Below are positions 5,995-57,194 of a stretch of DNA of 64,000 nucleotides, piece after piece; positions within the stretch are counted from its first letter, which is position 1, and the number at the start of each line of letters is the position of its first letter. The translations under genes were made by a program, and so were the position numbers. The stretch covers positions 64,001 to 128,000 of the IMG/VR virus record IMGVR_UViG_3300036985_007703; one strand, given 5' to 3'. Origin of the DNA: a virus. The notes beneath the pieces were generated by a model, which ran no database searches, was not told the DNA's origin, and worked only from the letters and a program-made list of their open reading frames with translations.

Positions 5995-6014
5995 CTGCGC
6001 ATGCGCATGCGCAG
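5995..6014. promoter_or_regulatory. Conserved 20-bp palindrome, copy 1 (CTGCGCATGCGCATGCGCAG)
   Basis: Perfect palindrome between the stop at 6020 and the RBS of the 5979 gene. Confidence 0.75.
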
Positions 6015-32152: not shown

Positions 32153-35100
32153 TCACTTCGGCGGGGGCGCCGCCGCCCCGTTGCCCTGCGGGATCTGCGC
32201 CCACCCGCTGCCCGCCCCCGGCGTCCAGCCCTTGAGCCCCGCCGTGTTGTCCTTGATCTCCGTGAGCACCTTGCGCGTCTCCACGCCATCCAACACCACC
32301 GCGTTGATGACCCCGTAGAGCCCGCTCATGTCGAGGCTCGACTTGAGGACCTTCTTGTCGTCCTCGGTCAAGATGCCCGCATACTGCGCCGTGATCTTCC
32401 CGAAGATCTCCTGGTTGATCGGGCTGTTCTTGAACTCCTCCAAGGCCTTGGCCTGGAAGGCGTCGATCGCGAACACGGCCGACTGCTCCAGCACCGTCGC
32501 GAAGCCCGTCTCGAAGGAGGCCTGCGCCCCCGTGATGCCGTCCATGAGGCACTCCAGGACGTTCGCGCCGGCGTCCCATAGCACGTAGCCCGACAGCGGC
32601 CCCTCCTTCGGGGGGCTGTTGCCGAAGATCTGGTTGCCAATGCTCTTCGTGAAGGTGTCCCCCACCGTCTTCGTCATCTGCGGCTCGGCCTCGACCACCC
32701 CCTTGCCGACCTCGCCCAGGATCGTGATGCCCGCCGCCGCGGCCTTCGCGATCAGCTCCTGCGAGGGCCCCGCCACGCTCTGCCCATAGGCCTCGGCGAG
32801 CCGCACCTGCAGGTTGTTCGCCTGAATCATCATCTGGTCGATGTCGGCCTGGCCCTTGGCGGCCCACGCCTTCTGCAGCGTGTCGAGCTGCTCGTACCGG
32901 AACTGGTCCTTGCGCTGCTGGATCTGCCACGGGGCGAAGTCCTTGCTCCCGAACTCCCCCGCCTTCTCCTTCGCCGCGGCCTTCTGCTCGATCTCCGCGG
33001 CCTGCATCTGGAAGGCCGGCAGCGCCTGGACCTTGGAGAAGGTCGCCGCCATGCGGCCCATGTCGATCTTCTGCCCCGAGACCCCGCTGACGTAGTTGCT
33101 CCCCTTCAGGCGCCCCGTCTCGCCCGCGTAGTCCTTCTGGGTGCGTAGGGCGCTCTTGAGCGTCTGGTCCATCTTGGTCACGTCGCCCGTGGTGCCCGTC
33201 CGCCCAAAGTCCTCGGTGATGTTCTGCCGGTCGATGCGCGTGGCCTCCTGGAGGCCCTTAACCTTCTTGTACTGCGCGTCGATCTTCGCCTCGGCCTTGG
33301 CAATCTGCTCGTCGAGCCCCTTGTTCAGGTAGTCAAACCACGCGTTGATCGCCACCACGCCGATCCCCGTGATGATCCCCGCGAGCCCGAGCAGGCCGGG
33401 GCTCGCCTGGGCCGCGGCCCCGATCCCGTTGAACGCCAGGCCCAGGGCGCCCCCCACCACCTTCGTGATGAGCGTCCCCACGCCGGGGATCTGCGCGGCG
33501 AGGCCCCCGACCACCCCCACCATCGCGACCTTCCCGAGGACGCCCGCGTTGTCCCACATCTTGCCGAAGAACTCCTTGAGCTTGGCAATCCCCTGGTCGA
33601 TGGGGCCGCCCTCGCTCGTGAGGTAGGCCCACGCGTCCTCCCCCGCCTTCGCGATGGCCGGCCACACCGACTCCTTGAACCACTTGGTGAAGTCCGTCCA
33701 CCCCGCCTTCACGTGCGGCACGATCTTGTCCCAGACCGCCCACGCCTGCTCCTTGATCTTCACCCACATGGGCTCGAACTGCTTCCAAATCTCGTCCCGC
33801 GTGGCCTGCGGCAGCATGAACCACCCCGCGATGCCCCCGACGATCCCCGCGAAGGGCCCCATGCCCAGGGTCTCCATGAGCGGCGCGATCGACTCGCGGA
33901 CCTTGCCCACGCCGTCCATCGCCAGCTCCAGGCCGATCCCGAACTTCTGGGCCTCCTTGGTGTTCATCCCCATCTGCTTGCCGAAGTGGAGCATCACCCC
34001 CTTGGCGCCCATCTGGTCGAACACGCTGTAGGCCTTGATGAGCGGCCCCCACGTGGCGTCGCTGGCCATCAGCTTGGCCTGCTTGCCCATCTCCTTGTAG
34101 CTCGCGATCTCCTCCTTCACGAACCCCTTGACCTCGGGGCGCGTGATCGCGCGGATGCGCGTCTGGAACATCTCCTTGGCCATGTCGAGGCCCTCCTGCA
34201 GGGTGCGCCCGCTGGAATAGGAGTCGTTCGCGAACTTCTTGAGGGCCCCGTCCGCCTTGACCGTGGCCGTGCTCATCTTCGCCAGGGCGTCCGCGCCCTG
34301 CGTCGTGCTCATGGCCAGGTAGACCGCGTTGCTGCCGGCCTCCCCGAAGGTCTCCGTGAGGTCGCCGAGGACCGCAGCGTCGAGCTGCTTCCCGCTCGCC
34401 TGCGCGGCCTTCATCCACTTGCCCATCTCGGCCATGCCGGCCGCGGAGTCCTGCGAGCCGAGGGCGATCATGCGCATCGCCTCCTCGGTCCCCATCCCGA
34501 GGGCGCTGAGCTTCGTGAAGATGTCCGGCATCTCCCCGAGGCCGAGCTGCGCGCGCTCCACCGCCACCTGCCACTCGAGGAACTTGTTGGATGTCTCCGA
34601 GGCCGCCTTCGAGGCCTCCTCCCCGCTGAGCCCCATCTGGTGGTAGGCCCCCGCGAGGCGCACCGAGGCCTGCACCGTGCTCTGGATCTCGTCCGCCGAG
34701 CGCATGTGCGTGGCCACCTGCTTGGCGAGGATCGTGTTGAGGCCGCCCATCTGCTCGCCCATCTGGGTGAACATCTGCGCGCCGATCCCGCCCTGGTTGC
34801 CCATGGCGACCATGTACTCCAAGGTCTGCTTGGCCTGCTTGCCCGTGAAGCCCCACGACGCCACGAGGTCCCCGCCCAGGGCCCCGAGCTGCTCCGTGGC
34901 CATGCCCGTGCCCTCGGCGAGCTTCACGAACTCCTGCGTGCTCATCCCCAGCTCCTTGAACACGCTCTTCGAGGCCTCGCCCGCGTTGCGCAGGGCCCCC
35001 ATCGTCTTGACGACGGTCTCCACGCCCACGTTCATGCCGTAGGCCATGCCCGAGGCCTGCCCCGTGAGCTTCTTTAGCTCCGCCCCCGTGACGCCCATCA

Positions 35101-35479
35101 TCGCCAGGGCGGGCCGCGCCTGCTGCGCGTAGCTCGCCCCGATGCTCTCCATGCTATTGCTGAGGTTCCCGCTGTCCTGCGTGAGGCTGCGGACGCCGCT
35201 CGCGATCGTCGAGAGGTTGAAGCTGTTGACGCGGTTCCTGACGCTATTGGAGAAGGCCCCCGCGAGGCCCTTGGCCATGCCCCCCACCCCCAACGCGGCC
35301 CGGCCCGCGCCGCCCGCCACGGCCTTGAGGGCCCCCGCGAGCTTGCCCCCCGCCGCGAGGCCGTTCTGCGTGGCCAACCCCTTGTTGATCTTGGTGATCG
35401 AGTCGAGCGCGGACCCCATGGCCCGGCCCATGCCGTCGTCCCGCGCCCCAAAGCTAAAGGCGAACCCGAGCTTGGCCAT
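32153..35479 (-). CDS. Tail tape measure protein
   Basis: 1108 aa, Ala/Gly/Met-rich and helical, with Trp-periodic and hydrophobic segments; follows the frameshifted chaperone. Confidence 0.88.
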   Translation of the reverse strand: MAKLGFAFSFGARDDGMGRAMGSALDSITKINKGLATQNGLAAGGKLAGALKAVAGGAGRAALGVGGMAKGLAGAFSNSVRNRVNSFNLSTIASGVRSLTQDSGNLSNSMESIGASYAQQARPALAMMGVTGAELKKLTGQASGMAYGMNVGVETVVKTMGALRNAGEASKSVFKELGMSTQEFVKLAEGTGMATEQLGALGGDLVASWGFTGKQAKQTLEYMVAMGNQGGIGAQMFTQMGEQMGGLNTILAKQVATHMRSADEIQSTVQASVRLAGAYHQMGLSGEEASKAASETSNKFLEWQVAVERAQLGLGEMPDIFTKLSALGMGTEEAMRMIALGSQDSAAGMAEMGKWMKAAQASGKQLDAAVLGDLTETFGEAGSNAVYLAMSTTQGADALAKMSTATVKADGALKKFANDSYSSGRTLQEGLDMAKEMFQTRIRAITRPEVKGFVKEEIASYKEMGKQAKLMASDATWGPLIKAYSVFDQMGAKGVMLHFGKQMGMNTKEAQKFGIGLELAMDGVGKVRESIAPLMETLGMGPFAGIVGGIAGWFMLPQATRDEIWKQFEPMWVKIKEQAWAVWDKIVPHVKAGWTDFTKWFKESVWPAIAKAGEDAWAYLTSEGGPIDQGIAKLKEFFGKMWDNAGVLGKVAMVGVVGGLAAQIPGVGTLITKVVGGALGLAFNGIGAAAQASPGLLGLAGIITGIGVVAINAWFDYLNKGLDEQIAKAEAKIDAQYKKVKGLQEATRIDRQNITEDFGRTGTTGDVTKMDQTLKSALRTQKDYAGETGRLKGSNYVSGVSGQKIDMGRMAATFSKVQALPAFQMQAAEIEQKAAAKEKAGEFGSKDFAPWQIQQRKDQFRYEQLDTLQKAWAAKGQADIDQMMIQANNLQVRLAEAYGQSVAGPSQELIAKAAAAGITILGEVGKGVVEAEPQMTKTVGDTFTKSIGNQIFGNSPPKEGPLSGYVLWDAGANVLECLMDGITGAQASFETGFATVLEQSAVFAIDAFQAKALEEFKNSPINQEIFGKITAQYAGILTEDDKKVLKSSLDMSGLYGVINAVVLDGVETRKVLTEIKDNTAGLKGWTPGAGSGWAQIPQGNGAAAPPPK

Positions 35480-35521: not shown

Positions 35522-35719
35522 CTATCGCCGCCGCCGTGCTCGCGCCGTGTTCGCCTCGCGCTGCCCCGCGCGCCGCTGCTCCATCTCCATCTTCTCCCGC
35601 AGCAGCCGCTGGCGCCGGCTGTAGGGCATCGCCATCGCGTCGGTGTAGTTCAACCCCATGTGTTCGATGAGGGAGAACACATCCGACTCTAGCGCCCCGA
35701 CGCTGCCGACGGGAAGAAA
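35522..35719 (-). CDS. -1 frameshift extension of the tail assembly chaperone (gpT/E'-like)
   Basis: The -1 frame after the slippery site reads FLPVGSVGALESDVFSLIEHMGLNYTDAMAMPYSRRQRLL...; no obvious RBS/start of its own. Confidence 0.8.
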   Translation of the reverse strand, partial: FLPVGSVGALESDVFSLIEHMGLNYTDAMAMPYSRRQRLLREKMEMEQRRAGQREANTARARRRR

Positions 35720-36552
35720 AAACCCGGCTGTGACACGTCCAGGCTCGCCGTCCACTCGTGCTCGCACGCCGCGCACGCGAACTCCACCTTGTCGTCGATC
35801 CCGCCCTCGCGCTCGTCGAACGCGACCCGCAGGCGCTCGCGGTCCCGCAGGGGCAGCGCCTTGAGCGCCCGGAGGGTCTCCGCCCACCCGCGGTCGCGGT
35901 CCAGGGGCCGCCCATCCACGTGCGTCACGCGGGCCGCCAGCGACAGCGTGGCGAGGTCGTCATCGCTGCCCTTGCGCTTACGCGCCGCCCACTCCTCGTC
36001 CTCCACCCCCATCACGCGCCACACCGCGGTGCGCCCGCTGGGGAGGGGCTCCTCGAAGATCCGCACCGCGCGATCCGGCATCGCCGTGATCGCCAGCTCG
36101 CTGAGGTCCACCGCAAACGGGGTCTCCTTCCCGCACTTCGGGCAGACCACCCGCATGTCGTAAAGGTCGCCCAGGGAAGCCCGCCGCACCGCGATCAGCA
36201 GCACCGAGCGGTCCATCGAGGTCAAGACGTGCGCCACCCCCCGCAGGGCCCCGCGCCCCGTGAGGGTCCCCAGCTGCACCAGGCAGTTGCCGATCATGCG
36301 GTTCAACCGCGCGATCACCGGCCCCTTGCCCGCCAGAATGTCCTCCTCCGTGCCCGACATCTCCTGCACGATATACGTGAAGTGGATCTGGCCCTCCGCG
36401 TCGATGTGCCCGCACGGCAGCTCGCCGCCGATCGTCGCCGCGCGCGGGTCGTGCAGGTTCACGCCCGCCTTCCCCTGCTCGACCACGGGCGCCGGCGCCG
36501 GCCCCGCTCCTTGCTCCGCTGGCTGCTCTTCCACGTGCTGCTCCGTCATCAT
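35689..36552 (-). CDS. Tail assembly chaperone with CxxC pairs
   Basis: E+SG.EEDIL, DR..LL.A+RR.SLG, CPKC, CAAC and a terminal FFFP; directly upstream of the tape measure. Confidence 0.85.
   Translation of the reverse strand: MMTEQHVEEQPAEQGAGPAPAPVVEQGKAGVNLHDPRAATIGGELPCGHIDAEGQIHFTYIVQEMSGTEEDILAGKGPVIARLNRMIGNCLVQLGTLTGRGALRGVAHVLTSMDRSVLLIAVRRASLGDLYDMRVVCPKCGKETPFAVDLSELAITAMPDRAVRIFEEPLPSGRTAVWRVMGVEDEEWAARKRKGSDDDLATLSLAARVTHVDGRPLDRDRGWAETLRALKALPLRDRERLRVAFDEREGGIDDKVEFACAACEHEWTASLDVSQPGFFFPSAASGR
35716..35725 (-). other. Programmed -1 ribosomal frameshift site G GGT TTT TTC
   Basis: Overlapping in-frame X XXY YYZ heptamers G-GGT-TTT and T-TTT-TTC near the chaperone stop. Confidence 0.85.
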
Positions 36553-36813: not shown

Positions 36814-37794
36814 TCAGGCCTGCGCCACCGGCTGCTGTTGGGCGCGCCCCGCCGCCGCCTCGCGGTCGATTGCCGCCCCGCGCTTGGTCAGCTCCGCATC
36901 CGCGGCCTTCGCGCGCTGCTTCGCCGCCGCCTTGGCCTTCAGGCGCTCCTTCGCCGCCGCCGCATCCCGCTTGGTGGGCGCCGCGGCCTTCTTCTTGGCG
37001 CCCTGGCTCGCCAGCGCCTTGGCCGCGTGCTTGCTCGGGCCCGTGCCCCCACCAGCCCGGTGCTTGGCGATCAGCTTGAGGGCCGCCGCCGCCGCCTTCA
37101 CGCGCTTCGCATCGCCCCGCCCCATGCCCTGCTGCATCATGGAGAGGGCCCGCACCAGCTCCTTGTCGCCGCCCTTGCGTGCCGCCTTCAGCGCCTTGCC
37201 CACCTTCGCGGTGGTCTCCTGCGCCTTCGCCGTCTGGTAGGCCGCGTGGACCGTGCGCGCGCTCGCCGCCACGCCCCGCCCCAACGTCTTGAGCCCGCGC
37301 CCCGTGGCCCGCAGGGCCTTGCCGAAGCGCGACTTCATGAGCTGCTTGCCCTTCTTCTTGAGGGCCTTCTTGACCACCTTGAGCTTGTGCTTGCCCCGCC
37401 GCTTGAGGGCCGCCGCCTTGCCGCCCAGCACCGCGATCTTGTGCCGCATCTCGGGCGACATCGCGTCCTTGGCCGCGCCCCAGCCCTTCTTGGCCAGCCG
37501 CGCCGTGCCCTGGGCCGCCGCCTTGCCCACCGCGGCCCCCGCCCGGCCCAGCCCCTTGGCCGCCGCCTGGCCGAGGATGCCCGCCATGCGCGTCCCCACG
37601 CCCTCGTCAAGTTGCTGGCCCGCCGGCGTCAGGGCCTCCACGCGCACGAGCCCCTTGCGCATGCGCATGCGCGCCCCGCGCCCCGGCAGCGCCCCCGCCG
37701 CCACGAGCCCCGGCCGGATCGTCCCCGGCCGCTTGCGGGGCATCCGGCTCCCCAGCGGCACGGGGACCCCCGCCACGTTTGCGCTCGTGATCAC
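36814..37794 (-). CDS. Highly basic Lys/Ala/Arg-rich (histone H1-like composition) protein, putative internal head protein
   Basis: 326 aa, extreme K/A/R content, LDE|G site before the basic region. Confidence 0.65.
   Translation of the reverse strand: MITSANVAGVPVPLGSRMPRKRPGTIRPGLVAAGALPGRGARMRMRKGLVRVEALTPAGQQLDEGVGTRMAGILGQAAAKGLGRAGAAVGKAAAQGTARLAKKGWGAAKDAMSPEMRHKIAVLGGKAAALKRRGKHKLKVVKKALKKKGKQLMKSRFGKALRATGRGLKTLGRGVAASARTVHAAYQTAKAQETTAKVGKALKAARKGGDKELVRALSMMQQGMGRGDAKRVKAAAAALKLIAKHRAGGGTGPSKHAAKALASQGAKKKAAAPTKRDAAAAKERLKAKAAAKQRAKAADAELTKRGAAIDREAAAGRAQQQPVAQA
37655..37674. promoter_or_regulatory. Conserved 20-bp palindrome, copy 5 (intragenic)
   Basis: TTGCGCATGCGCATGCGCGC, read as ARMRMRK in the ORF. 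Confidence 0.55.
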
Positions 37795-38141
37795 GGGACG
37801 CCCTCAGCCCCGATCGGCTGTAGGACCACAATGGCCCCGCGCCGGTCGCGCTCCACGACGGCCCGCCAGCCGGCCTCGCGCTCGAAGCGCCGCGCCACCT
37901 GCCGCGCCACCGCCGCCGCGTCGTGCCCCTCCAGGACCGCCCGCAGGCCGCCCCCCTCCTCGATGAAGCGGCAGGCGCGGCCCTTGGTCGCGCGCTCCGC
38001 CTCCATGCGTAGGAGGCGCCCCACGCGCCGCTCCTCGGGGCCCAACCCCGTCGACAGCACCGGGGCCACGGTCTCGTGGGCCCGCACGGCCCGTGGGGTC
38101 GCCACGATCTCGCGCAGCTTCGATGATAGCCGTCCGCGCAT
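37791..38141 (-). CDS. Hypothetical protein with a leader-like N-terminus
   Basis: Start reassigned to ATG 38141 (RBS GAGG; MRGRLSSKLRE); GTGA overlap with the next gene. Confidence 0.6.
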   Translation of the reverse strand: MRGRLSSKLREIVATPRAVRAHETVAPVLSTGLGPEERRVGRLLRMEAERATKGRACRFIEEGGGLRAVLEGHDAAAVARQVARRFEREAGWRAVVERDRRGAIVVLQPIGAEGVP

Positions 38142-38167
38142 GGTCACCTCGTGCGCCCGCAGGCGCG

Positions 38168-38971
38168 CTACTTCTTCGCCTTCGCCCGCCGCGCCAAGAC
38201 GCCCTTCATCCCCTTCTTGGCCGACTTGCGGAACTTCCCGCTCTTCTTCGTCCAGCCGGGCCGCGCCGGGGACCCGCCCCAGGGCCCGCTCCCATCCTGC
38301 GGGTAGAACACGTGCTTGCCCCCCACGGTGCGCCACACGCCCTTCTTGCCCGGAGGCTTCACGTTCCACACCTTGCCGCCCTTGCCGCTCGGCGTCGTGC
38401 TCCACCCCGGCGTCTTGTACTCCGCGAGGATGCCCGTCAGGGCCTCGCTCAGGCACCGCCCCCCGTAGGTGCGGGCCTCGTGCTTCTTCTTGCCCCGCCC
38501 AATGCCGGGGAGCCCGAGCTGGCCCTTCTGCGGCATCACGCCGCGGGCCGCGCGGAACTTCCCGCCCTTGCCCGCCCAGCCCGGCCGGAACGGCGCGCCG
38601 CCCCAGGGGCCCTCGGGGACGTCCCCGCCCGGCTTGTCCGGGAAGAAGAGGCGCTTGCCGTTGACCGTCACCCACCGCCCGTCGACCGCGCCCTTGGGCC
38701 CCGGCATCGTGGCCTCGCCCCCGGCGCTCTTGCCGCTAGGGGCATCGCGGTCCTGCGCCATCTTCTTGCGCCGCAGCTGGCCCATCGGCGTGCTGTGGTA
38801 GTCGCCGACGGAGGGCGCGAGGGCCCGGTGCGCCGCCGCCCGCTTGCGGAACTCCGCGACCGGCACGCCCGCCGTCGTGCTCTGGTGCGCTGGCGCCTTG
38901 GCCTTGGCCGCCTTGCGCGCCTCGACCACCATCCCCCGCAAGCCCTCGATCAGCTGTCGCACTGTCCGCAT
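38168..38971 (-). CDS. Basic protein with leader and duplicated W.TV.GK module
   Basis: Leader MRTVRQLIEGLRGMVVE|A; two G.W.TV.GK..F.P....GPWGG.P.RPGW..K.GKFR units. Confidence 0.7.
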   Translation of the reverse strand: MRTVRQLIEGLRGMVVEARKAAKAKAPAHQSTTAGVPVAEFRKRAAAHRALAPSVGDYHSTPMGQLRRKKMAQDRDAPSGKSAGGEATMPGPKGAVDGRWVTVNGKRLFFPDKPGGDVPEGPWGGAPFRPGWAGKGGKFRAARGVMPQKGQLGLPGIGRGKKKHEARTYGGRCLSEALTGILAEYKTPGWSTTPSGKGGKVWNVKPPGKKGVWRTVGGKHVFYPQDGSGPWGGSPARPGWTKKSGKFRKSAKKGMKGVLARRAKAKK

Positions 38972-38983
38972 GGGGTCCTCCGT

Positions 38984-39280
38984 TCAATACTCGCTGTGGA
39001 TCTTATCGAAGTACACGATCTGGGAGTTGTTGCGCCCATCACGGCGCCGTTCTCCGGGTAATCCCATAAAGATCCGCACAAAGGCCCTGCCCGTCTTGGT
39101 CAGCGCCGCCGCCGTTTCAAGCTGCCGCTTTACGACCCCATCCTCGCCCATGACCAAGATCGTGTCGCCAGGCTCGTACTTCTTGTTGAACGCCGCCACA
39201 TCCTCCGCGTCCTCCGCGTTGCCCCGGATTGTGGCCTCCGCCAGCTGCCTAATCAGATCGCGCATCGTCCGCATGGTCAT
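38984..39280 (-). CDS. Small protein with leader
   Basis: MRTMRDLIRQLAE|A; RBS GAGGAG. Confidence 0.7.
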   Translation of the reverse strand: MTMRTMRDLIRQLAEATIRGNAEDAEDVAAFNKKYEPGDTILVMGEDGVVKRQLETAAALTKTGRAFVRIFMGLPGERRRDGRNNSQIVYFDKIHSEY

Positions 39281-39341
39281 CGCTCCTCGCGTCGGTCGTC
39301 CTCGTCTCGTTATAGCGCGCGCACCCGCCCCCGTCGCGCTT

Positions 39342-40007
39342 TTAGCCGCATCGCCCCATCACAAATTCCAACGGGTATCTCCCATCGGCGTGGTTCGCGA
39401 AGTCCCGGTGCGCGACCACGCCGGGCCCCGGAACCGCCGCCGGCCGCCGGTCCCAGCCGGGGATCTTCCGCAGCTTGGGCCCCAGCCCCGCCGTGGGGAA
39501 CGCCACCGGGATGCCCAGCGCCCCGCAGAGCCACGGCACCAGCGCCTTGAGCACCATGAGCTGCGTCGGCGTCGGCAGCACGTAGGCCTTGACCCCGCCC
39601 GCCGGCACCCACGTCCACCACTCCGCCGGGATCGTTGCCCCAAACGGCTTGCGCGCGTAGGCCGGCGCGTACGGATTGCATACCTCGATCCCGAGGCTCG
39701 TCGGGTTCACCTGGTTCGCGTGGACCATCACGGCCGCCCCGAGGTCCCCGTGGCAGCTCAGGCGCCCATCCGGCCCCAGGATGAGCTGGACGCCGTACCC
39801 CTTGCGGATCAGGGTGTCCTTGCACCCGCTCGCCGTGTTCCCGCAGGTCTCGTGCAGCACGAAGTGCTGGAGGGGCCGCACGCGGGCCTTGGCCTTGAAC
39901 GCGGGCTCCCCGTCGTCCAGGTAGTTCGCCGCGCTGCCCCCCGCCGCGCGCACGGCGTCCGGCAACGGCACGCGCGCCCCGAAGATGATCACCGCGTTCG
40001 ACGGCAT
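39342..40007 (-). CDS. N-acetylmuramoyl-L-alanine amidase (Amidase_2-like), probable endolysin
   Basis: FVLHET, HA...N..SLGIEV.N, PT..Q...L..L and VVAHRDF motifs of Zn-amidases. Confidence 0.8.
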   Translation of the reverse strand: MPSNAVIIFGARVPLPDAVRAAGGSAANYLDDGEPAFKAKARVRPLQHFVLHETCGNTASGCKDTLIRKGYGVQLILGPDGRLSCHGDLGAAVMVHANQVNPTSLGIEVCNPYAPAYARKPFGATIPAEWWTWVPAGGVKAYVLPTPTQLMVLKALVPWLCGALGIPVAFPTAGLGPKLRKIPGWDRRPAAVPGPGVVAHRDFANHADGRYPLEFVMGRCG

Positions 40008-40673
40008 CTAGCGCCCCCGTCCCATGCGCTGGAACTTCTCCTCGCGGTCCGCCTCGGCCCACCCCTCGGGGTGCCGCTTGAGGTACTGCGTGACGTATAC
40101 CCGCGCCTTCGTCAGCATCTCGTCGATGGTCCTCCCATAGAGAGGGACGACCTGCGCCGCATCGCCAGTGGCGTTGTACGGCGACTCGTCATCATAGATA
40201 GACAGTTCCCACTCCTCTGCCGTGCGCCCCGGCAAGGCCTCAACATGCACCCCCGGCCGCGGCTCCGAGCGGAACCCCTTGCCCGTGCGCTGCGCCTGGA
40301 ACGTCACGACCCCCTCGGTCATGGCCCGCATGCCCCGCCCGGTCGCCTCGCGCACGGCCCGCCCCTTCTGCCCCAGGTACTTCAGGGTCACCTCGATCGC
40401 GGCCTCCTCGGCCTCGTCCTGCGTGAGCCCCTTCGCGAAGGCATGCCCGCCTACGATGCCGTCGGGGCTGTCCTCCGCGTCCACATCATCGAGGATCGTC
40501 GCGTGCCAACGGTCCGTCTGTGCGTAGTGCTCCAGCTCCACGCTGACCGTCTTCGTGGGCTTCGCCACCAGCTTCACGTCCGGGCCAAAGCTCGCGTTGC
40601 CCAGCTTTTCCGGCTTGAAGATGAACCGATAGCGCCCCGTGAGGCGCTCTAGCAACATGCGCATGGTGCCCAT
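40008..40673 (-). CDS. Two-module protein with leader
   Basis: Start reassigned (MGTMRMLLERL); internal VRE|ATGRGMRAMTE|G linker. Confidence 0.65.
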   Translation of the reverse strand: MGTMRMLLERLTGRYRFIFKPEKLGNASFGPDVKLVAKPTKTVSVELEHYAQTDRWHATILDDVDAEDSPDGIVGGHAFAKGLTQDEAEEAAIEVTLKYLGQKGRAVREATGRGMRAMTEGVVTFQAQRTGKGFRSEPRPGVHVEALPGRTAEEWELSIYDDESPYNATGDAAQVVPLYGRTIDEMLTKARVYVTQYLKRHPEGWAEADREEKFQRMGRGR

Positions 40674-40675
40674 GG

Positions 40676-41248
40676 TCACGCCCCTTCGATCCGCTGCGCG
40701 GCGACCACCTGCTCCTCGGCCGTCTCCAGATCGCCCGCCCGCAACGCCTTGAGCGCCACGAGGGCCGCCCCCTGCGCCTTGGGGCTCCACTCAGCCATCC
40801 AGTTGTCCCCCGCGGCCACGTGCCCATGGAACTTCCGCATCGCGTTGAGCGCCTTAGCGTCCGCCGCCGTGAGGACCCATGCCTTATCCGCTGGCCCCAT
40901 CCGGCCGCCCCACTTATTCCCCTCTGCCTCAATCATCGCGCGCATGCCAGCATAGTCCTGGCTCTCGCCGAAGGCCCGCGCAAGCCCCTTTGAGGAGTGC
41001 CGCTGGGCCGCGGGGACCTTCACCAAGATCCCCTTGGGGGACCGCATGACCTTGAACTTCGGCTTTTCCGCTGCAGCCTGCCGCTTGATCCGCTTGCGCA
41101 TGCCCTTGCTGGTCTTTACCCACTTGCCAAAGACCATCTTCTCGTCTGCGCCATGCTGCGCCAGCTCCTCGGGCGCGTGCTTCTGCGCCACGTCCCGCAG
41201 GGTCATGGCCTCTTGGAGATCCTCGATCAATCGCCTCATGCTTCGCAT
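40676..41248 (-). CDS. Two-module protein with leader
   Basis: MRSMRRLIEDLQE|A, RBS AGGAG; internal FGE|SQDYAGMRAMIE|A linker. Confidence 0.7.
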   Translation of the reverse strand: MRSMRRLIEDLQEAMTLRDVAQKHAPEELAQHGADEKMVFGKWVKTSKGMRKRIKRQAAAEKPKFKVMRSPKGILVKVPAAQRHSSKGLARAFGESQDYAGMRAMIEAEGNKWGGRMGPADKAWVLTAADAKALNAMRKFHGHVAAGDNWMAEWSPKAQGAALVALKALRAGDLETAEEQVVAAQRIEGA

Positions 41249-41261
41249 CGTCGTCTCCTGC

Positions 41262-41717
41262 TCACACGGCCTTGAGGCCGCTCGCAAAGGCGCGGTCCCG
41301 CGCCGGTTGTACCCGCTCCGTCCGGTAGGCCCGGTTGAGGCTCTTGCGGATCACGCTCCGGTCCACGCTGCGCCCCACGTCCGCGAGGGCCGCGCGCATC
41401 CGGCCGTCGTCCGCCAGGGCCTCCGCGTCCCGCAGGCGCCAGCGCGCCGTCCACCAGTAGCCCAGGGGGCTGCGCGTCCACCGCAGGAGGACCCACGGGG
41501 TCCCGCCCGCCCAGCGGGGGGCCCGCACCGTGAGGCGCACCTCGCCCCCGCCCAGGCGCCCCCGGATCGGGGCCCGCAGCCGCCCCTGCACCCAGCCCGC
41601 CGTGCGCTCCAGGGGCGCCGTCCACCGCGCAGGCGCATTGGGCCGCACACGCCCCCCGTGCGTCAGCACGGTCAGCACGTGGTCCAGGGCCAGCTGCACG
41701 GCGTCATCGGGGGTCAT
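41262..41717 (-). CDS. Arg/Trp-rich hypothetical protein
   Basis: ATGA overlap with the upstream gene; fills the gap. Confidence 0.55.
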   Translation of the reverse strand: MTPDDAVQLALDHVLTVLTHGGRVRPNAPARWTAPLERTAGWVQGRLRAPIRGRLGGGEVRLTVRAPRWAGGTPWVLLRWTRSPLGYWWTARWRLRDAEALADDGRMRAALADVGRSVDRSVIRKSLNRAYRTERVQPARDRAFASGLKAV

Positions 41718-42118
41718 CGGCGGCGCTTGTCCCGCATGCTATCCGGTGGCCAGTCCATGCGATCCGCCGGGTCGCTCGGCTGCTTGGGCTCCTCATGGCG
41801 CACGTCCACCGTGAGGCCGTCGCGCCCCGGCAGCGTGATGCGCTTGCCCAGCTTCCCGGCCAGCATCTTCTGGACCTTGGCCGCGGGGACGTCCGCGCGC
41901 TCCAGCGCGGCGCGGAGGTCATCCTCGTCTACCGGCCACTGCTCGATGGCGCCCTCGCTGACATCGTAGATCTCCTCGTCGCTCAGGTCGGCCACCCACC
42001 CCTCGTCCGGGTCCAGCACGAAGGCCGTGACCTTGACCCGCGTGTGGCTCGTGACCGTCTCCATGCGCCCCGCGCGCCCCTCGACCAGCGCCCGCAGGCG
42101 GCTGCTCAGCGTGCCCAT
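41714..42118 (-). CDS. Acidic small protein with leader
   Basis: MGTLSSRLRALVE|G; RBS AAGGAGG. Confidence 0.7.
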   Translation of the reverse strand: MGTLSSRLRALVEGRAGRMETVTSHTRVKVTAFVLDPDEGWVADLSDEEIYDVSEGAIEQWPVDEDDLRAALERADVPAAKVQKMLAGKLGKRITLPGRDGLTVDVRHEEPKQPSDPADRMDWPPDSMRDKRRR

Positions 42119-42131
42119 CGTCGCCTCCTTG

Positions 42132-42740
42132 CTACATCCCGCGGCGGTCGCCCGCTGCGTTCTTGCCCGCCGTCGTCAGGCTCAGCGCCCCCGCCTTGTT
42201 CTTAGCCAACATCTTCTTGGCCACCAGGGCATCGATCTCGTCCGAGGTCACCTTGTTGTCCGCCAACAGCTCCTTCCGGTACGCCGACGTGAAGCCCATC
42301 ATGGCCAGGATGCGCGCCTCGCGCTCCGTCACGTCCGCGTTGCCCGGCAGCAGGGGCGCCAGCGCGCTCGGGTGCACGTAGATGCTCGCCGAGGTCCCGT
42401 GGTAGCCCGTGGTCCCCACGATCGCCGCCCCGTCCGGCGGCAAGGGATAGCGCTCCTGCACGGTGTCGATCGACCGGCTCGTAAACATGTTGGCCCCGCC
42501 CCAGGAGCCCTCGGAGGCCTTGTAAACCCCGGTCGCCAGGTTGACGACCACAGCAAAGCCCTTCTGGCCGTCCCCCGCGTAGGGGTTCAGGTCGACATCC
42601 GTGCGCGCCGACACGTGGATGTCCCGGCGCCCGTAGCCCACGCTCTTCAGGGCCTTCTGCAGGGGCGCCGGCAGCTCCTTCACCGCCACCGCCGTGCCGC
42701 CGCTAAGCCCCTCTTCCAGTCGCTCCAACAACGCTCTCAT
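42132..42740 (-). CDS. Hypothetical protein with leader
   Basis: Start reassigned to ATG 42740 (RBS GAGGA; MRALLERLEE|G); globular-looking body. Confidence 0.7.
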   Translation of the reverse strand: MRALLERLEEGLSGGTAVAVKELPAPLQKALKSVGYGRRDIHVSARTDVDLNPYAGDGQKGFAVVVNLATGVYKASEGSWGGANMFTSRSIDTVQERYPLPPDGAAIVGTTGYHGTSASIYVHPSALAPLLPGNADVTEREARILAMMGFTSAYRKELLADNKVTSDEIDALVAKKMLAKNKAGALSLTTAGKNAAGDRRGM

Positions 42741-42973
42741 GGCTTCCTCACCACGCGGTCCATCCGGCCGCGCCGCTCCAGCTCCGCCAGCATCTCGTCC
42801 TTCGCCGCCCCCACCCAGACCTGGCCCGTGCTCGGCGACCACAGGATCTCCTCGCCCGCCGCGTAGGCCCCGCCGATCCCCGTGCCCGCGCGGGGCGCCG
42901 GTTTTAGCTCCATGGGCAGGCCCTCGCGGCGGACCCGGAAACCCTCCTCCAAGCGGGTCAGCAGGGCGCGCAT
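42737..42973 (-). CDS. Small protein with leader, paralog of 42979..43245
   Basis: MRALLTRLEE|G; AGT...G.AY..GEE.L..P......GA.KD shared with the neighbour. Confidence 0.65.
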   Translation of the reverse strand: MRALLTRLEEGFRVRREGLPMELKPAPRAGTGIGGAYAAGEEILWSPSTGQVWVGAAKDEMLAELERRGRMDRVVRKP

Positions 42974-42978
42974 CGCCC

Positions 42979-43245
42979 TCAGTAGCCCCCGCCCATGAAG
43001 GCCTCGTCGTCCCGCGCCGCCTGGAACTCGCGCCACGCCTTGTCCTTGTTGGCGCCCGCCAGGATGAGCTTGTCGTTGGGGTAGTAGAGGACCTCCTCGC
43101 CCTTCTTGTAGGCCAGGCCCTTGGCATCGGTCCCCGCGGCCTTCGCCTTCATCAGGTAGGGGTCACGCCCGCGCCCGCCGCTGCGCCCCCCCCACTCCAC
43201 GATCGTCCGCAGGTCCGCCGCCAAGGCCCGTAGGTTCCGTGCCAT
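42979..43245 (-). CDS. Small protein with leader
   Basis: MARNLRALAADLRTIVE; RBS AAGGAG right after palindrome copy 6. Confidence 0.65.
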   Translation of the reverse strand: MARNLRALAADLRTIVEWGGRSGGRGRDPYLMKAKAAGTDAKGLAYKKGEEVLYYPNDKLILAGANKDKAWREFQAARDDEAFMGGGY

Positions 43246-43257
43246 CGTCATCGCTCC

Positions 43258-43277
43258 TTGCGCATGCGCATACGCAG
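43258..43277. promoter_or_regulatory. Conserved 20-bp palindrome, copy 6
   Basis: TTGCGCATGCGCATACGCAG; on the minus strand its last AA forms part of the AAGGAG RBS. Confidence 0.72.
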
Positions 43278-43285
43278 CGCCGTTG

Positions 43286-43717
43286 TCACTTGTCCTCGAC
43301 CAGCAGCCCCGGCTTGGGGCCGTCGACCACCGTGCGGTCCGCCGAGGGGCTGTCCTCACGGTCGGCCGCCTCCTGGTCCGCCACGTCCATGGCGCTCGTG
43401 TCCGCCCACTGGGGCTGCGCCGCATCGGGGTCCCCCGCCGGCGCCGCCACCGGCGCCCGGCTGAGGGCCGCCGTGACCGCCATGGCCACGGCCTCGCCCT
43501 GCTTGGCCGCCCGGCGCACCGCGATGGCCGCGCCCTGTTGCCCGTGGTCCGCGATGCCCTGCGCGAGGAGCCACGCCCCGACGAGCCCAAGGACCGTCAG
43601 CATGGTCTCCTCGTCGATGCGCTTTCCCGTCAGCGCGTTGGTCAGGTACGCCGCCACGCTGATGAGCATCACGATCAACTTCCGGCTCTCGATCTTCAGC
43701 TTCGCCAGCCACGTCAT
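43286..43717 (-). CDS. Putative holin
   Basis: N-terminal SRK followed by two hydrophobic helices and a charged tail; an amidase gene lies ~3 kb downstream. Confidence 0.55.
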   Translation of the reverse strand: MTWLAKLKIESRKLIVMLISVAAYLTNALTGKRIDEETMLTVLGLVGAWLLAQGIADHGQQGAAIAVRRAAKQGEAVAMAVTAALSRAPVAAPAGDPDAAQPQWADTSAMDVADQEAADREDSPSADRTVVDGPKPGLLVEDK

Positions 43718-43725
43718 GGATCACC

Positions 43726-44382
43726 TCACGCAGTCTTGACCAACGCCGCGATGCCCAACCCGATGGGCGCCGCTGCCGCCATCATATCCGACTTGCTGGC
43801 CCCCAGCACGATCTCCTCGATCGCGTGGGGCTGCAGCTCCAGCTCCATCATGCTCACCTCGGCGCTGTTCGCGTCGAAGTCCGTCCCCGCCTTGTACCGC
43901 GTGGGGAGGCAGTCCCAGAGGACCCAGACGCGCCCCGGCACGAACGAGGCGCCCTCCCAGGTCTCCAGGGGGGCCGGGAGGTCGAGGTTGTAGCCCCCCG
44001 CCTCCTGGAAGGCGTTCACGCCCGTGTAGTGGATGAGGAGCAGGGTGCGCTGCACCATGTCGGAGCCGCGCATCGCCCGCTTCACCCAGTCGTACAGCGT
44101 GTCGTCGTTCATGCGGGCCCCGCGCGTCAGCGAGATCGGCCCGCAGCCGCCCCCCTCGTAGGCCACCGTGGTCCACATGGAGTTGAGCTGCTTGATCTCC
44201 CGCGTCTGCAGGGTGATCTCCGGGGCCGTGATGCTCGCGAACCCGTACATGGGCGAGCCCAACACGAAGAAGGGGAAGGTCGTCGAGGGGATCAGGTCCA
44301 GCAGCCAGAAGCGGTGCGCCTGCAGCAGGTCGAACATGCGACTCTTGCTGACCGCCTTGAGCGTGTTCCGCACATCGACCAC
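43726..44382 (-). CDS. Tail tube-family protein (tube initiator, gp19/gp54-like)
   Basis: F.SITAPEI, ISL.RG.....LYDW, CLP.RYK...DFDA.S.EVS..ELEL; paralogous to the adjacent tube gene. Confidence 0.85.
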   Translation of the reverse strand: MVDVRNTLKAVSKSRMFDLLQAHRFWLLDLIPSTTFPFFVLGSPMYGFASITAPEITLQTREIKQLNSMWTTVAYEGGGCGPISLTRGARMNDDTLYDWVKRAMRGSDMVQRTLLLIHYTGVNAFQEAGGYNLDLPAPLETWEGASFVPGRVWVLWDCLPTRYKAGTDFDANSAEVSMMELELQPHAIEEIVLGASKSDMMAAAAPIGLGIAALVKTA

Positions 44383-44430
44383 TGCCTACCTCATGGCCCC
44401 GCGCCCCCCGCCGCGGGGAGGCCGCAGGGA

Positions 44431-44949
44431 TCAGACCGTCTCACCGTTGATCTTCAGCTCGACCGACTCGACCGCGAGGCCGAACTCGGCGATCGACACG
44501 TCGCCGCTCGTCGCGTCCATGTCCGCCGCGAGCTTCACGCGGATCGGCACGCACTCCCGGCAGATGTACTCGCGCGTCGCGCCGCTGGCCGCCACGAGGT
44601 TGGCGCCGAAGGCGTCCTCGCGGCTGAAGTGCAGGATCTGGAGGTCGGCGCGGTACTCGCCGCCCTTCGCCGCGCTCTGGCCCCAGCGCCAGAAGTCGCT
44701 ATCCAGGGCCGTGATGCCGCGGGTCAGGGTGACCTCGCTGAACGTCGGGATGCCGCTGAGCTTCTTCGTGAAGATCGTCGTGCCCTCACGGTACTCCACG
44801 GCGTCCATCGTCAGCTCGGGGATGCTCAGCGTGTTGAAGCCCGCCTGGACCTTGAACACGTCCCCCTGCGACCCGATGGGCGAGCCGTCGATGACCCGCG
44901 CGTGGTAGCGGAAATTCTGAAAGAAGTCGGTCGTGATTGCCCGTGCCAT
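44431..44949 (-). CDS. Tail tube protein (T4 gp19-like)
   Basis: NFRY, AGF..LS.PE....VEYREG....KL.G...F..VTL.RG.....F..W, C.P......+DA...DV.I.E..L.VE. Confidence 0.92.
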   Translation of the reverse strand: MARAITTDFFQNFRYHARVIDGSPIGSQGDVFKVQAGFNTLSIPELTMDAVEYREGTTIFTKKLSGIPTFSEVTLTRGITALDSDFWRWGQSAAKGGEYRADLQILHFSREDAFGANLVAASGATREYICRECVPIRVKLAADMDATSGDVSIAEFGLAVESVELKINGETV

Positions 44950-45477: not shown

Positions 45478-48027
45478 TCACACCAGGGCCTTCTGCGAGA
45501 AACGGAACACTATGAACTCCGCGGGCTTGTTCGACGCGAGGCCCACGTCAACGAACATGAGGCCCTGGTCCACGGTGTTCTGCGGGTTGTTGGTCTTGTC
45601 GCAGATCACGAAGAAGGCCTCCTTGGGCGAGGTCCCCGCGAAGTACCCTTGCTGGAAGAGGCCGAGCAGGAACGTGTCGAGCTGGAGCTTCACGCGGCCC
45701 CACAACTGGGGCCCATTGTTCTCGAAGACATGCACGTGAGTCGCGTTGAACACGCTCTTCTCCACGAACTGGAACAAGCGCGTCATCTGGATGTAAGGCC
45801 AATCGCCGCCCGCGATGTCGAGGGTCTTGGCGCCCCAGATCACGCGGCCCGTCTGCGGCCAGCTCACGAGGCAGTTGAGCTTGTCCTGGTAGCAGATGCC
45901 CACCTGCAGCGGGGTGAGGTCGCGCTCCAGGCCGATCTGCCAGCTCAGCGCGCCGTCGCCCGTGCCGGCCGGCGCCTTGCCGACGTTCTTGTTGATGTCG
46001 GTCGTCGCGTAGCGTCCCGCCACGTGGCCGCCGCAGGGCAGGTTGATGGCCGCCTGGGTCACGGGGTCGATCACGCGCACGTGCGGGTAGTACACCGCGG
46101 CGTACTTCGTGAAGCGGCCCAGGGTGAACTTCTTCCAGTTCACGGCCTCTTGCGGTTCCAGGCCCTCCGGCGCGGTGAAGATCGCGAACTTGTCCTTGCG
46201 GAGCATGGCGTAGTCGATGACGTCCGTGCAGACCAGCTCGTCGGTTTGGAAGTCGGCGACCACGACGCTCATCATCGCGTCCACTTGGTCGAGGGCGTAG
46301 AGGCCCTTGTAGTCCGCGACGAGCGTGGCGCCCGTCACGTCGCTGCGGTCGAGGGCCGAGCCGTCGGCGCCGTCGAAGAACTGCACGACCACGGCCGCGC
46401 CGGGCTGCGTGTAGTAGGTCGCGGTCTGCGGCTTCGTGATCGGGGCCTGGGCGGGGTAGGTGTCCGCCGTGGGGCCCGCGGCCGGGTTGCCCGCGATCTT
46501 CCACGTCAGCGTGCAGGCGCCCGTGGTGTAGTCCACGCGGTTCGTGCCGTTGCTGTTGAGGGCGTAGGCGCCGCAGGGGCGCTGCAGGCTGAGGTTGCCG
46601 TTGCCGTCGTCGATCACGACGGGCCCGTAGTAAAGCTGCGTGATGCGCACCGCCGCCACCCCGTCGAACGTGTCGGCGAGCCCGCTCACATCGAGGGCCA
46701 GGGCCCCTGTCAGGTAGTTCACGGTGCCCACGGTGGTGCCCGTGCAGTTGCCGGCCACGACCAGCTTGAGGTTGCCCGCGCCGTCGTCGCCCGCGATCTT
46801 GGCGCCGTCCCCGTCCAGGGTAAAGCTCACGAGCACGCCCGCGGCCACCGAGGTCTTCGCGGTCGAGGTGTTGGGGTGGAGCTGGGTCGGCGTCGCCGGG
46901 GTCCATGCCCACGTGGTGTCCGTGACGAGCGGGATCGTCGTGATGATCGGCAGCGGGCTGTGCTTGAAGCCGAACTGCATCGCCAGGGTGGTCTTCGCCA
47001 CCGATGTGCCGATCTGGTACACGAACTCCTTGTTGGCGCCGTTGTAGGCCGGGGAGTTGCTGACGTCCCTGGACGCGTAGTGCGTGCCCGCCAGCTCGGG
47101 GGGCAGCTCGCGGTTGAAGGCCACGACCGCGGCGATGTCGGAACCCGCGTTGAGGTCGTTCAGCACCGTGGCGATGAACTGCGGGCTGCTCGCGTCATCG
47201 AGCACCACGCCCTGATAGGTCTCGAACGTGTTCCAGCCCTGGATTTTCTCGATGTACTCATCGATGGTCACGTCGAAGCGCGTGTAGCTCGCCGTGGCGG
47301 CCACGTAGTAGTCGGGGGTCCCGCTGACCACGGCGCGGTAGTTGTTGCCCGCGAGGCCCGGCCACTTCAGGTCGAAGCGGAAGGTCTCGTAGACCCAGCT
47401 TGCCGTGAGGAACTGGCCCGCCGGGAAGTCGGCCGGCGTGCCGAAGGTGAGGTGCACCTCGCCGGTCTCGTAGTCGATCGAGCCCGTGGTGTCCACGCCA
47501 TCGTCGAACCCGCCCGTGCCCGTGACGGTGAAGGTCCCATCGCCGTTGTCGGTGAAGGTGCCGATCTTCGGCACGACCTCGCCATCCGTCGTCGTCAGCA
47601 CCAAGGAGGCGGCCAGCGTGTAGGGGCTGGGGCCGTAGCTGCCGTGCGGGACCACCGGGGTCTTGGGCAGGCTGAAGCTGTAGCTCGCCGCGCTGTCGCC
47701 CTCCACCACGTCCATGCCCTGGACGTCTTTGGTGAGGAAGCAGCGCGCCTTCACGGCGTCGACCTCGTGGACCACGCGCACGAAGTACAAAGTGGTGCCG
47801 CCGTTCTGGAAGAACGCGTAGGCCTCGGTCGGGGCCAGCGAGGCCGCGGTGAAGTCGCCGAACTTGGCCGTGAACTCCTGGAAGGAGGTCACGATAGTCG
47901 GCTTGTTCGTCGGGCCTTTCTTGGAGAACCCGATCAGGCCGAGGTTGCTGGTGCTCACGCCCTGGATGGGGCCCGGCCCGCTGCTGCGCTCCTCGATGTA
48001 CACGCCCGGATAGTTACGCTCTGGCAT
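45478..48027 (-). CDS. Contractile tail sheath protein (gp18-like) with inserted domains
   Basis: YPGVYIEE, G...KGP...P..VTS..EF...FG, YAAVYYP, KAPAG, IWGAKTL, FE.N...LW..V, EAFFV.CD..NN, VGLA..KPAEFIV. Confidence 0.96.
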   Translation of the reverse strand: MPERNYPGVYIEERSSGPGPIQGVSTSNLGLIGFSKKGPTNKPTIVTSFQEFTAKFGDFTAASLAPTEAYAFFQNGGTTLYFVRVVHEVDAVKARCFLTKDVQGMDVVEGDSAASYSFSLPKTPVVPHGSYGPSPYTLAASLVLTTTDGEVVPKIGTFTDNGDGTFTVTGTGGFDDGVDTTGSIDYETGEVHLTFGTPADFPAGQFLTASWVYETFRFDLKWPGLAGNNYRAVVSGTPDYYVAATASYTRFDVTIDEYIEKIQGWNTFETYQGVVLDDASSPQFIATVLNDLNAGSDIAAVVAFNRELPPELAGTHYASRDVSNSPAYNGANKEFVYQIGTSVAKTTLAMQFGFKHSPLPIITTIPLVTDTTWAWTPATPTQLHPNTSTAKTSVAAGVLVSFTLDGDGAKIAGDDGAGNLKLVVAGNCTGTTVGTVNYLTGALALDVSGLADTFDGVAAVRITQLYYGPVVIDDGNGNLSLQRPCGAYALNSNGTNRVDYTTGACTLTWKIAGNPAAGPTADTYPAQAPITKPQTATYYTQPGAAVVVQFFDGADGSALDRSDVTGATLVADYKGLYALDQVDAMMSVVVADFQTDELVCTDVIDYAMLRKDKFAIFTAPEGLEPQEAVNWKKFTLGRFTKYAAVYYPHVRVIDPVTQAAINLPCGGHVAGRYATTDINKNVGKAPAGTGDGALSWQIGLERDLTPLQVGICYQDKLNCLVSWPQTGRVIWGAKTLDIAGGDWPYIQMTRLFQFVEKSVFNATHVHVFENNGPQLWGRVKLQLDTFLLGLFQQGYFAGTSPKEAFFVICDKTNNPQNTVDQGLMFVDVGLASNKPAEFIVFRFSQKALV

Positions 48028-56309: not shown

Positions 56310-57194
56310 TCAGGCGAGGGATGATGTCGACTCATCCGCGATGTGCTGGTGCGTGCGACGGTTGATGACGTTATAAATAGTCACCGTCGTCACCCCAAAG
56401 ATTTGCGCCAACTCGACCACGGAATGGGAATCGCAAAGTCTAGCTTTTCGGATAAACAGAACATCCCCGTCATCAAAAATTGAATTTCTCGCTCTAAATT
56501 TAACGACCATGTCCCGTGCATTGTCCACGTGCGTTCCCAAAAACAGATGTTCTGGGTTCACACACGCCGGATTGTCACACCGATGCAGGACGTTCTGTCC
56601 CTCTAGGATCGCCCCGTGATGGATCTCCCAAGACACACGGTGTGCCATCACCTTCTCCTTGTGCGCCACATCGTAGATCCGCCCATACGTCACCCCCTCC
56701 ACCGCCCCCTTCCATAGCCAACACCCATCCGTCTTCTCCACATACTTCCAAAACCGCTCCTCTATCGGCACCGGCACCGGGCCATTACGCGACCCCATCC
56801 TAATCTTGGATGCCTGTGTCTTCTGAATACGCTCCTCAGACTGCCTAACCCCCGTGTTCCAGTGCCGATCCCCACTGTAGGTCCGATGCTCCTCGTAGAT
56901 CCCCTGACGCCGCAACTGCGACACAATGCGCCGCTGTGTGGTCCCAAAGTGCTCCGCCAACAATTGCGGAGATCCCCCCGCTTGATACACTGCCGCCAAC
57001 TCCTTGGCATCCACCTCCTGCTCACGCGCAACAAGCAACTGTGCCTCCCCTCGTGACCGCACTGGGATCCCCACCTTGGCCAACCGAGCCCGTATTGTGT
57101 TTGGCTTCAACCCCACCTCGTTGGCAATCTCCACCGAGGTCTTCTTTTCCACCACATACCGCATCCACAAAAACTCACGCGTCAACTCCAGCAT
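56310..57194 (-). CDS. Free-standing HNH homing endonuclease with HTH domains
   Basis: RFW..V.K...CW.W.G, YG, AHRVSW..HHG.I, LHRCDNP.CVNP.HL..GT..DN..DM; visibly lower GC than the flanks. Confidence 0.92.
   Translation of the reverse strand: MLELTREFLWMRYVVEKKTSVEIANEVGLKPNTIRARLAKVGIPVRSRGEAQLLVAREQEVDAKELAAVYQAGGSPQLLAEHFGTTQRRIVSQLRRQGIYEEHRTYSGDRHWNTGVRQSEERIQKTQASKIRMGSRNGPVPVPIEERFWKYVEKTDGCWLWKGAVEGVTYGRIYDVAHKEKVMAHRVSWEIHHGAILEGQNVLHRCDNPACVNPEHLFLGTHVDNARDMVVKFRARNSIFDDGDVLFIRKARLCDSHSVVELAQIFGVTTVTIYNVINRRTHQHIADESTSSLA

Follow-up and report, generated by a model that had tools for sequence, protein, structure and literature searches.

The 64,000-base stretch of DNA analyzed here, in the following called the window, corresponds to bases 64001-128000 of the IMG/VR virus record IMGVR_UViG_3300036985_007703 (168,532 bp, completeness estimate 83%) and contains, between positions 43717 and 36814, an array of close-packed genes, most of which begin with a common N-terminal leader of the form M-R-x-L-(L/I)-E-x-L-x-E. 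The source phage is an uncultured GC-rich relative of T4, with a GC content of about 70% in the window and nearly all genes on the minus strand. The leader is likely, with a probability of about 0.72, to represent a T4-style capsid-targeting sequence removed by a prohead protease, and the set of internal or ejected proteins tagged by it would be unusually large. All predictions of this reading that can be tested on sequences came out as expected, namely the presence of the protease, the N-terminal location of the motif, cut-type sites, small basic cargo and conservation at the peptide level.

The nine gene starts named by the original prediction (43245, 42973, 42740, 42118, 41248, 40673, 39280, 38971, and 38141) were retained, as the frame plot of GC content at third codon positions switches frame at each of them and both the list of open reading frames (ORFs) and our own gene calling agree. 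For the first leader gene, 43245 is a likelier start than 43251, since AAGGAG is located 8 nt upstream of it and relatives start there. For the gene at 39280 the start was correct, but the residues quoted for it were incomplete, with the ORF opening M-T- ahead of them. The common leader is present on all nine genes, including the one starting at 38141, which is leader-like but matches weakly (leave-one-out score of -4.9) and whose N-terminus resembles the L-S-S-(K/R)-L-R sub-form seen in the 42118 gene. In our own gene call of the whole record, which yielded 238 genes, the leader was found on 28 genes (~12%) distributed over three arrays: nine in the window array, 17 a short way downstream of the fibre genes (genome 41.8-54.7 kb), and two at genome 142.4-143.4 kb, the latter two arrays lying outside the window. 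The 28 N-termini were aligned by MAFFT without gaps across a 10-residue core with the pattern M, R, small, L, I/L, E, x, L, x, E, in which M, L or V occupies position 1 in all 28 sequences, R position 2 in 22, L position 4 in 24, I, L or V position 5 in 26, and E position 6 in 17. Hydrophobic residues at core positions 1, 4, 5, and 8 mark an amphipathic helix.

The statistical support for the leader comes from three approaches. Within the first 20 residues of the proteins, simple leader patterns showed an 8-11-fold enrichment (P 1e-9 to 1e-11). A leave-one-out matrix scored 10 bits or more at 37 of 50,635 positions, 27 of which begin within residue 14, and gave the 28 members a median of 16 bits. 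Finally, a motif-free all-against-all comparison of N-termini revealed 40 genes with at least three partners vs. 13 for an internal control window. An equal frequency of the motif at gene starts in general had been named beforehand as an outcome speaking against a targeting function; the motif is confined to the three arrays.

Judging from the mixed codons, the unconserved upstream DNA and the persistence of the leader at 51% GC, selection acts on the leader as a peptide. The conserved residues use mixed synonymous codons (six for Arg, four or more for Leu), and the 30 nt upstream of the leader genes are 34% identical, which is about random for their composition. A complete 176-kb relative with 51% GC and a tube protein 52% identical (in the following called the 51%-GC relative) carries M-(R/K)-x-L-I-E-(K/R) on approximately 16-18 genes, some of them in an array at the same place after the tube gene and others elsewhere. 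It is conceivable that the conserved stretch is instead a DNA or translation-start element, such as a site for cassette exchange by recombination or a favoured initiation region, and that the peptide has no function; close relatives do swap bodies (the parts following the leader) exactly behind it, and rare codons are frequent in the leaders, which is common at gene starts. Still, such an element is very improbable given the codon mixture and the upstream DNA described above, the maintenance of the peptide at 51% vs. 70% GC, and the location of the core at 0-12 residues from the start codon, with copies also occurring inside ORFs. A DNA-level cassette boundary as the main cause was rejected on codon mixing and upstream divergence, and a role in recombination could exist alongside targeting.

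The head machinery which such a leader would require is encoded in the record. The proposed gp23-type capsid was recovered as a PF07068 match (E 4.5e-51), the major capsid gene being located at 63041-64000 on the minus strand with its 5′ end past the window edge. A gp21-like protease, whose absence from the genome had been given as an argument that would speak against the proposal, is present directly upstream of the capsid gene and just outside the window (genome 129811-130326; PF03420, Peptidase_S77, 66.4 bits and thus above the cut-off, E 1.9e-19). Its 534-aa product consists of the protease domain and, C-terminal to it, a coiled-coil tail of 350 residues; a gp22 homologue encoded separately was not seen in this phage. 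The N-terminus of the protease resembles the L-I-E-9 of T4 gp21, and that of the protease in the 51%-GC relative is almost a copy of this relative's own cargo leader, with the capsid N-terminus reading A-R-A-I-L-E. All nine window members contain a hydrophobic-x-E, as in the site rule of T4 gp21, ending at residue 6-19 and mostly followed by G or A. In the capsid protein, only two hydrophobic-x-E-(G/A/S/T) sites occur, at residues 9 and 33, and its remaining 496 residues contain none vs. 2.8 expected. The same sites are enriched in the protease tail (9 vs. 3.0 expected) and in a 295-aa core protein (6 vs. 1.7). Regarding the protease gene itself, the PF03420 match of a close relative (G003, L017/L018) falls into two parts approximately 1.2 kb apart within one 947-aa open frame, another relative (G010) has a protease frame of 1109 aa, and the portal protein of the 51%-GC relative (1289 aa, G001:C1:43878-47747) likewise matches in two pieces. 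These split protease and portal genes look like the result of inteins or inserted domains.

The description of the bodies as mostly unrelated was confirmed by BLASTP among all 28, which revealed one related pair, 42979-43245 with 42737-42973. The tagged proteins range from 53 to 452 aa (median 124 aa) and have a median isoelectric point (pI) of 9.5; 20 of the 28 have a pI above 8 vs. 25% of other genes (Fisher P 2e-6), pI not having been a criterion for their selection. Pfam and PHROGs searches with all array proteins assigned no family to any cargo protein, Amidase_2 matching a leaderless gene, and Pfam, searched with ten proteins from the two arrays outside the window, returned a CIS_tube match below threshold for a leaderless protein of one of them; two other matches in the Pfam/PHROG searches of the arrays were weak and sub-threshold. 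In the AlphaFold model of the 202-aa member (42132-42740), residues 2-14 form a helix in front of a confidently modelled domain, the confidence of the helix being lower than that of the domain. Foldseek against the PDB with this model yielded nothing at an E-value of 0.001 or better, leaving its beta domain without a fold match, and VIA-align pointed to a winged helix in the last 70 residues (Z 7.8, a modest value). The ESM Atlas provided no usable match for two cargo proteins.

Searches for homologues yielded two matches each for 40676-41248 and 41714-42118, and 68 metagenomic homologues for the body family of 42132-42740. In this family the leader is found only on the nearest homologues, the others starting directly at the domain or bearing other N-terminal extensions. 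Three complete phage genomes hold the 42132-42740 body without PF03420, and homologues in phages lacking this protease have no leader. These data also bear on the idea that the tagged genes are one old paralogous family with bodies diverged beyond recognition and an N-terminus kept for a structural reason. One neighbouring pair consists indeed of detectable paralogues, but at least 26 bodies are without similarity and vary in length (53-452 aa) and charge, one body family is widespread without the leader or with other leaders, and the leader helix is modelled with less confidence than the domain following it. Common descent of all members is therefore the least probable of the alternatives considered here.

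The arrangement of leaders and bodies is modular and subject to rapid exchange. The array varies from gene to gene among four contigs whose sheath proteins are 93-97% identical: a different body follows one leader that has itself stayed the same, some contigs lack two of the leader genes, and one contig has three additional leader genes. In the relatives L006 and L007, the leader of 42737-42973 precedes a different body and the gene at 38984-39280 is missing. Two window genes, both on the minus strand, contain more than one leader. The gene at 40676-41248 encodes a 190-aa ORFan in which the leader recurs internally at residue 102 (14.5 bits), and the 221-aa product of 40008-40673 is an in-frame fusion of two leader genes with a worn internal leader at residue 115. 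The two modules of the latter are separate genes in the relative L005. In L006, the gene corresponding to 40676-41248 and the next gene are joined into a 363-aa ORF of three leader-body modules, and in a homologue of 40676-41248 from metagenomic data the internal leader is followed by a different second module. Fusions of leader genes would be harmless if a protease separates the modules.

Along the direction of transcription, the head genes of the window are followed by the sheath gene (45478-48027), a gene of 151 aa, two tube paralogues (44431-44949 and 43726-44382), and then the leader array. As stated in the original prediction, the array adjoins the tail tube, the two paralogues (43726-44949, minus strand, phrog_4542) forming its upstream border. 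It comprises 13 genes with gaps of -4 to 61 nt, nine of which begin with the leader; the four without it are 43286-43717, 41262-41717, 39342-40007, and 36814-37794. On the 3′ side a small ribbon-helix-helix-like gene, a baseplate-hub-like gene (35689-36549, minus strand), the gene of an 1108-aa tape measure (32153-35479), and baseplate and fibre genes follow. The downstream neighbour had been taken for a tail chaperone, but the best match is to a baseplate-hub PHROG (phrog_150, E 8e-11), with no recognisable chaperone. The assessment of the location as unusual had to be revised as well, since the alt cluster of T4 likewise borders the tail genes 48 and 54. In the T4 record (NC_000866, 122742-125502), the gene for the packaged Alt protein and three small upstream duplicates of it lie directly after these two genes. 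A cargo cluster next to tail genes therefore has a precedent.

The window array is embedded in the tail module, with tube genes on one side and hub genes on the other, as is also the case in the 51%-GC relative. This location might imply that the leader sends proteins elsewhere (to the tail lumen or baseplate, a membrane or a host target), or that it is an oligomerisation or regulatory tag, as would also suit a generic amphipathic helix. However, the other two arrays are located outside the tail module, genes beside the portal gene of a more distant relative bear another leader, and the tape measure of 1108 aa would fill the tube lumen. Moreover, the leaders bear a gp21-type cut motif that is common to the capsid, the protease and the core proteins, and they lack hydrophobic signal-peptide character. 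Another destination or function of the leader is consequently unlikely, albeit the foremost of the three alternatives discussed here, which even taken together are clearly less probable than targeting to the capsid.

The closest known counterpart of the proposed system is the capsid-targeting tag on the T4 proteins IPI, IPII, IPIII, and Alt, which the prohead protease gp21 cleaves off. T4 propeptides comprise 10-19 residues, of which residues 4 and 7 serve targeting and residues 8 and 10 set processing, and the variable internal proteins of T4 have nothing but the tag in common (PMC9026906, PMC3012670, PMC5694885). Both systems share an N-terminal tag of 10-19 residues on unrelated, small and mostly basic proteins (non-essential in T4), which ends in (L/I)-x-E and follows the order M, basic, x, hydrophobic, x, E, x, hydrophobic, x, E, and then a small residue. 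They also share a gp21-family protease, a gp23 capsid, and a cargo content that varies among related phages with the tag remaining constant. According to the T4 record, IPII and IPIII begin with MKTYQEFIAE followed by A, gp67 begins with MEGLIE followed by A, and gp22, gp24, and gp21 have similar (L/I)-x-E ends. When 132 T4 ORFs were ranked with the leader matrix, gp67 was found in second place, IPIII and IPII in seventh and eighth, gp24 in ninth, and Alt in 11th (hypergeometric P 3e-4), with scores of 4-8 bits. The processed N-termini of the core proteins gp67, gp22, gp24, and gp21 are closer to the leader than the IP tag is, gp67 with its M-E-G-L-I-E then A being an example; these proteins differ in being essential for assembly, with conserved bodies and no variable cargo set. 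On the sequences compared, the resemblance of the leader to the T4 tags is best regarded as a likeness of kind and not as homology. The tag sequences differ, approximately 28 tagged genes in long arrays stand here against four in T4, some ORFs contain internal tag copies and polyprotein-like fusions, and the 350-residue coiled-coil tail of the protease replaces a separate gp22.

Two further systems invite comparison. In phiKZ and SPN3US, a gp21-related S80 protease processes many proteins of the head interior, cleaving after Glu within a short motif, and the propeptides of phiKZ-like phages are thought to be targeting signals (PMC5694885). Most of these propeptides exceed 100 residues and their motif is (S/A/G)-x-E, with no short leader common to dozens of genes, whereas the leaders described here comprise 10-19 residues, have a hydrophobic residue before x-E, and belong to a 168 kb T4-like phage. 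The protease of this phage matches S77, no separate search for S80 having been made. In extracellular contractile injection systems such as the Photorhabdus virulence cassette (PVC), effectors of various kinds, whose genes lie next to those of sheath and tube, are loaded by means of a portable signal at the N-terminus. PVC signals are approximately 50 disordered residues long and load the tube lumen of a particle without a capsid. The present record differs in encoding a capsid, a portal, a protease, and a tape measure of 1108 aa, and in the protease-type cut motif of its leaders.

In the mechanism proposed here, the short amphipathic leader helix would dock a new protein on the scaffold/protease core during prohead assembly, and the gp21-family prohead protease would then cut after a Glu with a hydrophobic residue two or three places ahead. 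Cleavage would free a small, mostly basic mature protein, which would be kept in the head together with the DNA and enter the cell at infection. We infer docking, cleavage, packaging and ejection, as well as possible roles in anti-defence, host take-over or DNA condensation, the anti-defence role being suggested solely by the T4 precedent. Several observations weigh against targeting and cleavage of this kind. The enrichment of matches in scaffold-like proteins is partly due to their common helical composition, and the cut site is ambiguous, as several leaders have two Glu residues that could serve. After the conserved Glu, the leaders of the 51%-GC relative have K or R in place of a small residue, and therefore this Glu may belong to the docking part rather than to the cut site. 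Two window members (37791-38141 and 42979-43245) fit the leader poorly, an amphipathic helix can serve many purposes, the similarity to the T4 tags is weak (4-8 bits compared to the median of 16 bits for the members), and 28 cargo species are far beyond the T4 precedent. A blastn search of the array against 50,697 GenBank phages gave no match, and protein searches with capsid and sheath for a cultured relative found only distant ones (<36% identity). None of these is close enough for a virion proteome to be borrowed.

Different leaders were observed in other phages. A more distant relative (G002), a 149-kb T4-like phage with a tube protein 37% identical and a protease of the same family, has no M-R-x-L-I-E genes. 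Seven of its genes near the portal gene (L028-L035, genome 32.5-41.7 kb), some of them large (338-870 aa), begin with a different common N-terminus, x-S-x-D-x-F-G-x-P-x-x-E, and the N-terminus of its protease also contains D-F-G. Two unrelated contigs with homologues of the 202-aa cargo body, one with 35% GC and one of 94 kb (L037:2021-5925 and L042:3967-8833), have leaders of their own on neighbouring genes. In the 35%-GC contig, this leader is of an x-L-K-A-L-I-x-E type and located next to the sheath gene, and in the other contig it is of a 25-residue M-x-L-R-S-x-L-I-x-L-A type. The different leaders in these three cases hint at lineage-specific tags. T4-like phages might in general use lineage-specific leader "address codes" matched to their scaffold/protease core, which in the present phage would apply to approximately 12% of the genes, exchanged as cassettes and sometimes as polyproteins; we offer this extension tentatively, considering its chances to be a little short of even. 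If such codes exist, the injected proteome of a phage could be read directly from its sequence, and the effector arsenal would be on the scale of a bacterial secretion system.

Since proteins injected with the phage DNA act before phage gene expression, they are a natural first line against host defences. To our knowledge, only a handful of injected proteins are known, because their discovery needs virion proteomics. If the leader is a targeting tag, it would provide about 28 candidates in one genome, and more with each relative, in a culture-free manner. It would also imply that the head-cargo capacity and turnover of a phage can reach approximately seven times those of T4 with its four tagged cargo proteins, and it would place a second, sequence-distinct targeting tag beside that of T4, which has already been used for loading foreign proteins into capsids. 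What appears to be new is the use of the T4 targeting principle with a different tag, on about seven times the four tagged cargo genes of T4, in arrays and with polyprotein-like fusions. The importance of individual cargo proteins is illustrated by T4, whose IPI blocks GmrSD and whose IPIII decides T4 infection of E. coli ECOR17 (PMC3012670; bioRxiv 10.1101/2022.04.14.488369).

The remaining leader genes of the window array are, like the array genes without the leader, encoded on the minus strand. The first one (42979-43245; 88 aa, or 90 aa with the 43251 start; pI 9.5) has an extended leader ending in I-V-E and is the paralogue of 42737-42973, which encodes 78 aa with a canonical 10-residue leader followed by G (22.9 bits leave-one-out). 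The 202-aa protein of 42132-42740, composed of the leader helix, the beta domain and the C-terminal winged helix, scores 26.5 bits leave-one-out. The 134-aa product of 41714-42118 has an acidic body and, according to the alignment, the leader sub-form L-S-S-R-L-R-A-L-V-E, which is retained in a homologue of just 36% identity. In the 98-aa protein of 38984-39280, the core starts at residue 6 and ends in L-A-E followed by A. The 267-aa protein of 38168-38971 (pI 11.3) contains two copies of a G-x-W-x-T-V-x-G-K motif, in full G-x-W-x-T-V-x-G-K-x-x-F-(F/Y)-P, and the weak leader gene at 37791-38141 (116 aa, pI 11.4) has the lowest leave-one-out score.

Among the genes without the leader, 41262-41717 (151 aa, pI 11.8) is conserved in relatives. 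The Lys/Ala-rich 326-aa product of 36814-37794 (pI 11.9) lacks an N-terminal leader and may be an internal protein that binds DNA. In the 51%-GC relative, the motif domain of 38168-38971 and a lysine-rich tail are combined in a single 254-aa protein (L010:18901-19665), whose N-terminus matches this Lys/Ala-rich gene. The 143-aa product of 43286-43717 has two hydrophobic helices and may be a membrane protein of the holin type, and 39342-40007 encodes an N-acetylmuramoyl-L-alanine amidase (Amidase_2, PF01510, E 5e-8). Both are conserved in the 51%-GC relative, the amidase of which carries an extra N-terminal domain. One possibility is that the two work as a holin-endolysin pair; alternatively, the amidase may be a wall hydrolase associated with the virion.

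No sigma-70-like promoter was found in the 35-46 kb region of the window, the window contains a single T4 late-promoter octamer, which is not close to the array, and no convincing terminator is present on the coding strand within 43717-36814. The timing of expression of the array is therefore read from the tight, operon-like spacing alone. An 18-bp palindrome, TGCGCATGCGCATGCGCA, occurs in eight copies in the window (0-2 mismatches; 0.01 expected), at positions 5996, 16582, 29373, 35501, 37656, 43259, 49293, and 61094. The copy at 43259-43276 is located immediately 5′ of the ribosome-binding site that serves the first leader gene, and another lies within the Lys/Ala-rich gene, where it codes for R-M-R-M-R. 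Amid the structural genes, an HNH endonuclease with helix-turn-helix motifs is encoded at 56310-57194 (PF13392, E 3.7e-11); with a GC content of approximately 0.62 this region is lower in GC than its surroundings, and the enzyme is probably a homing endonuclease.

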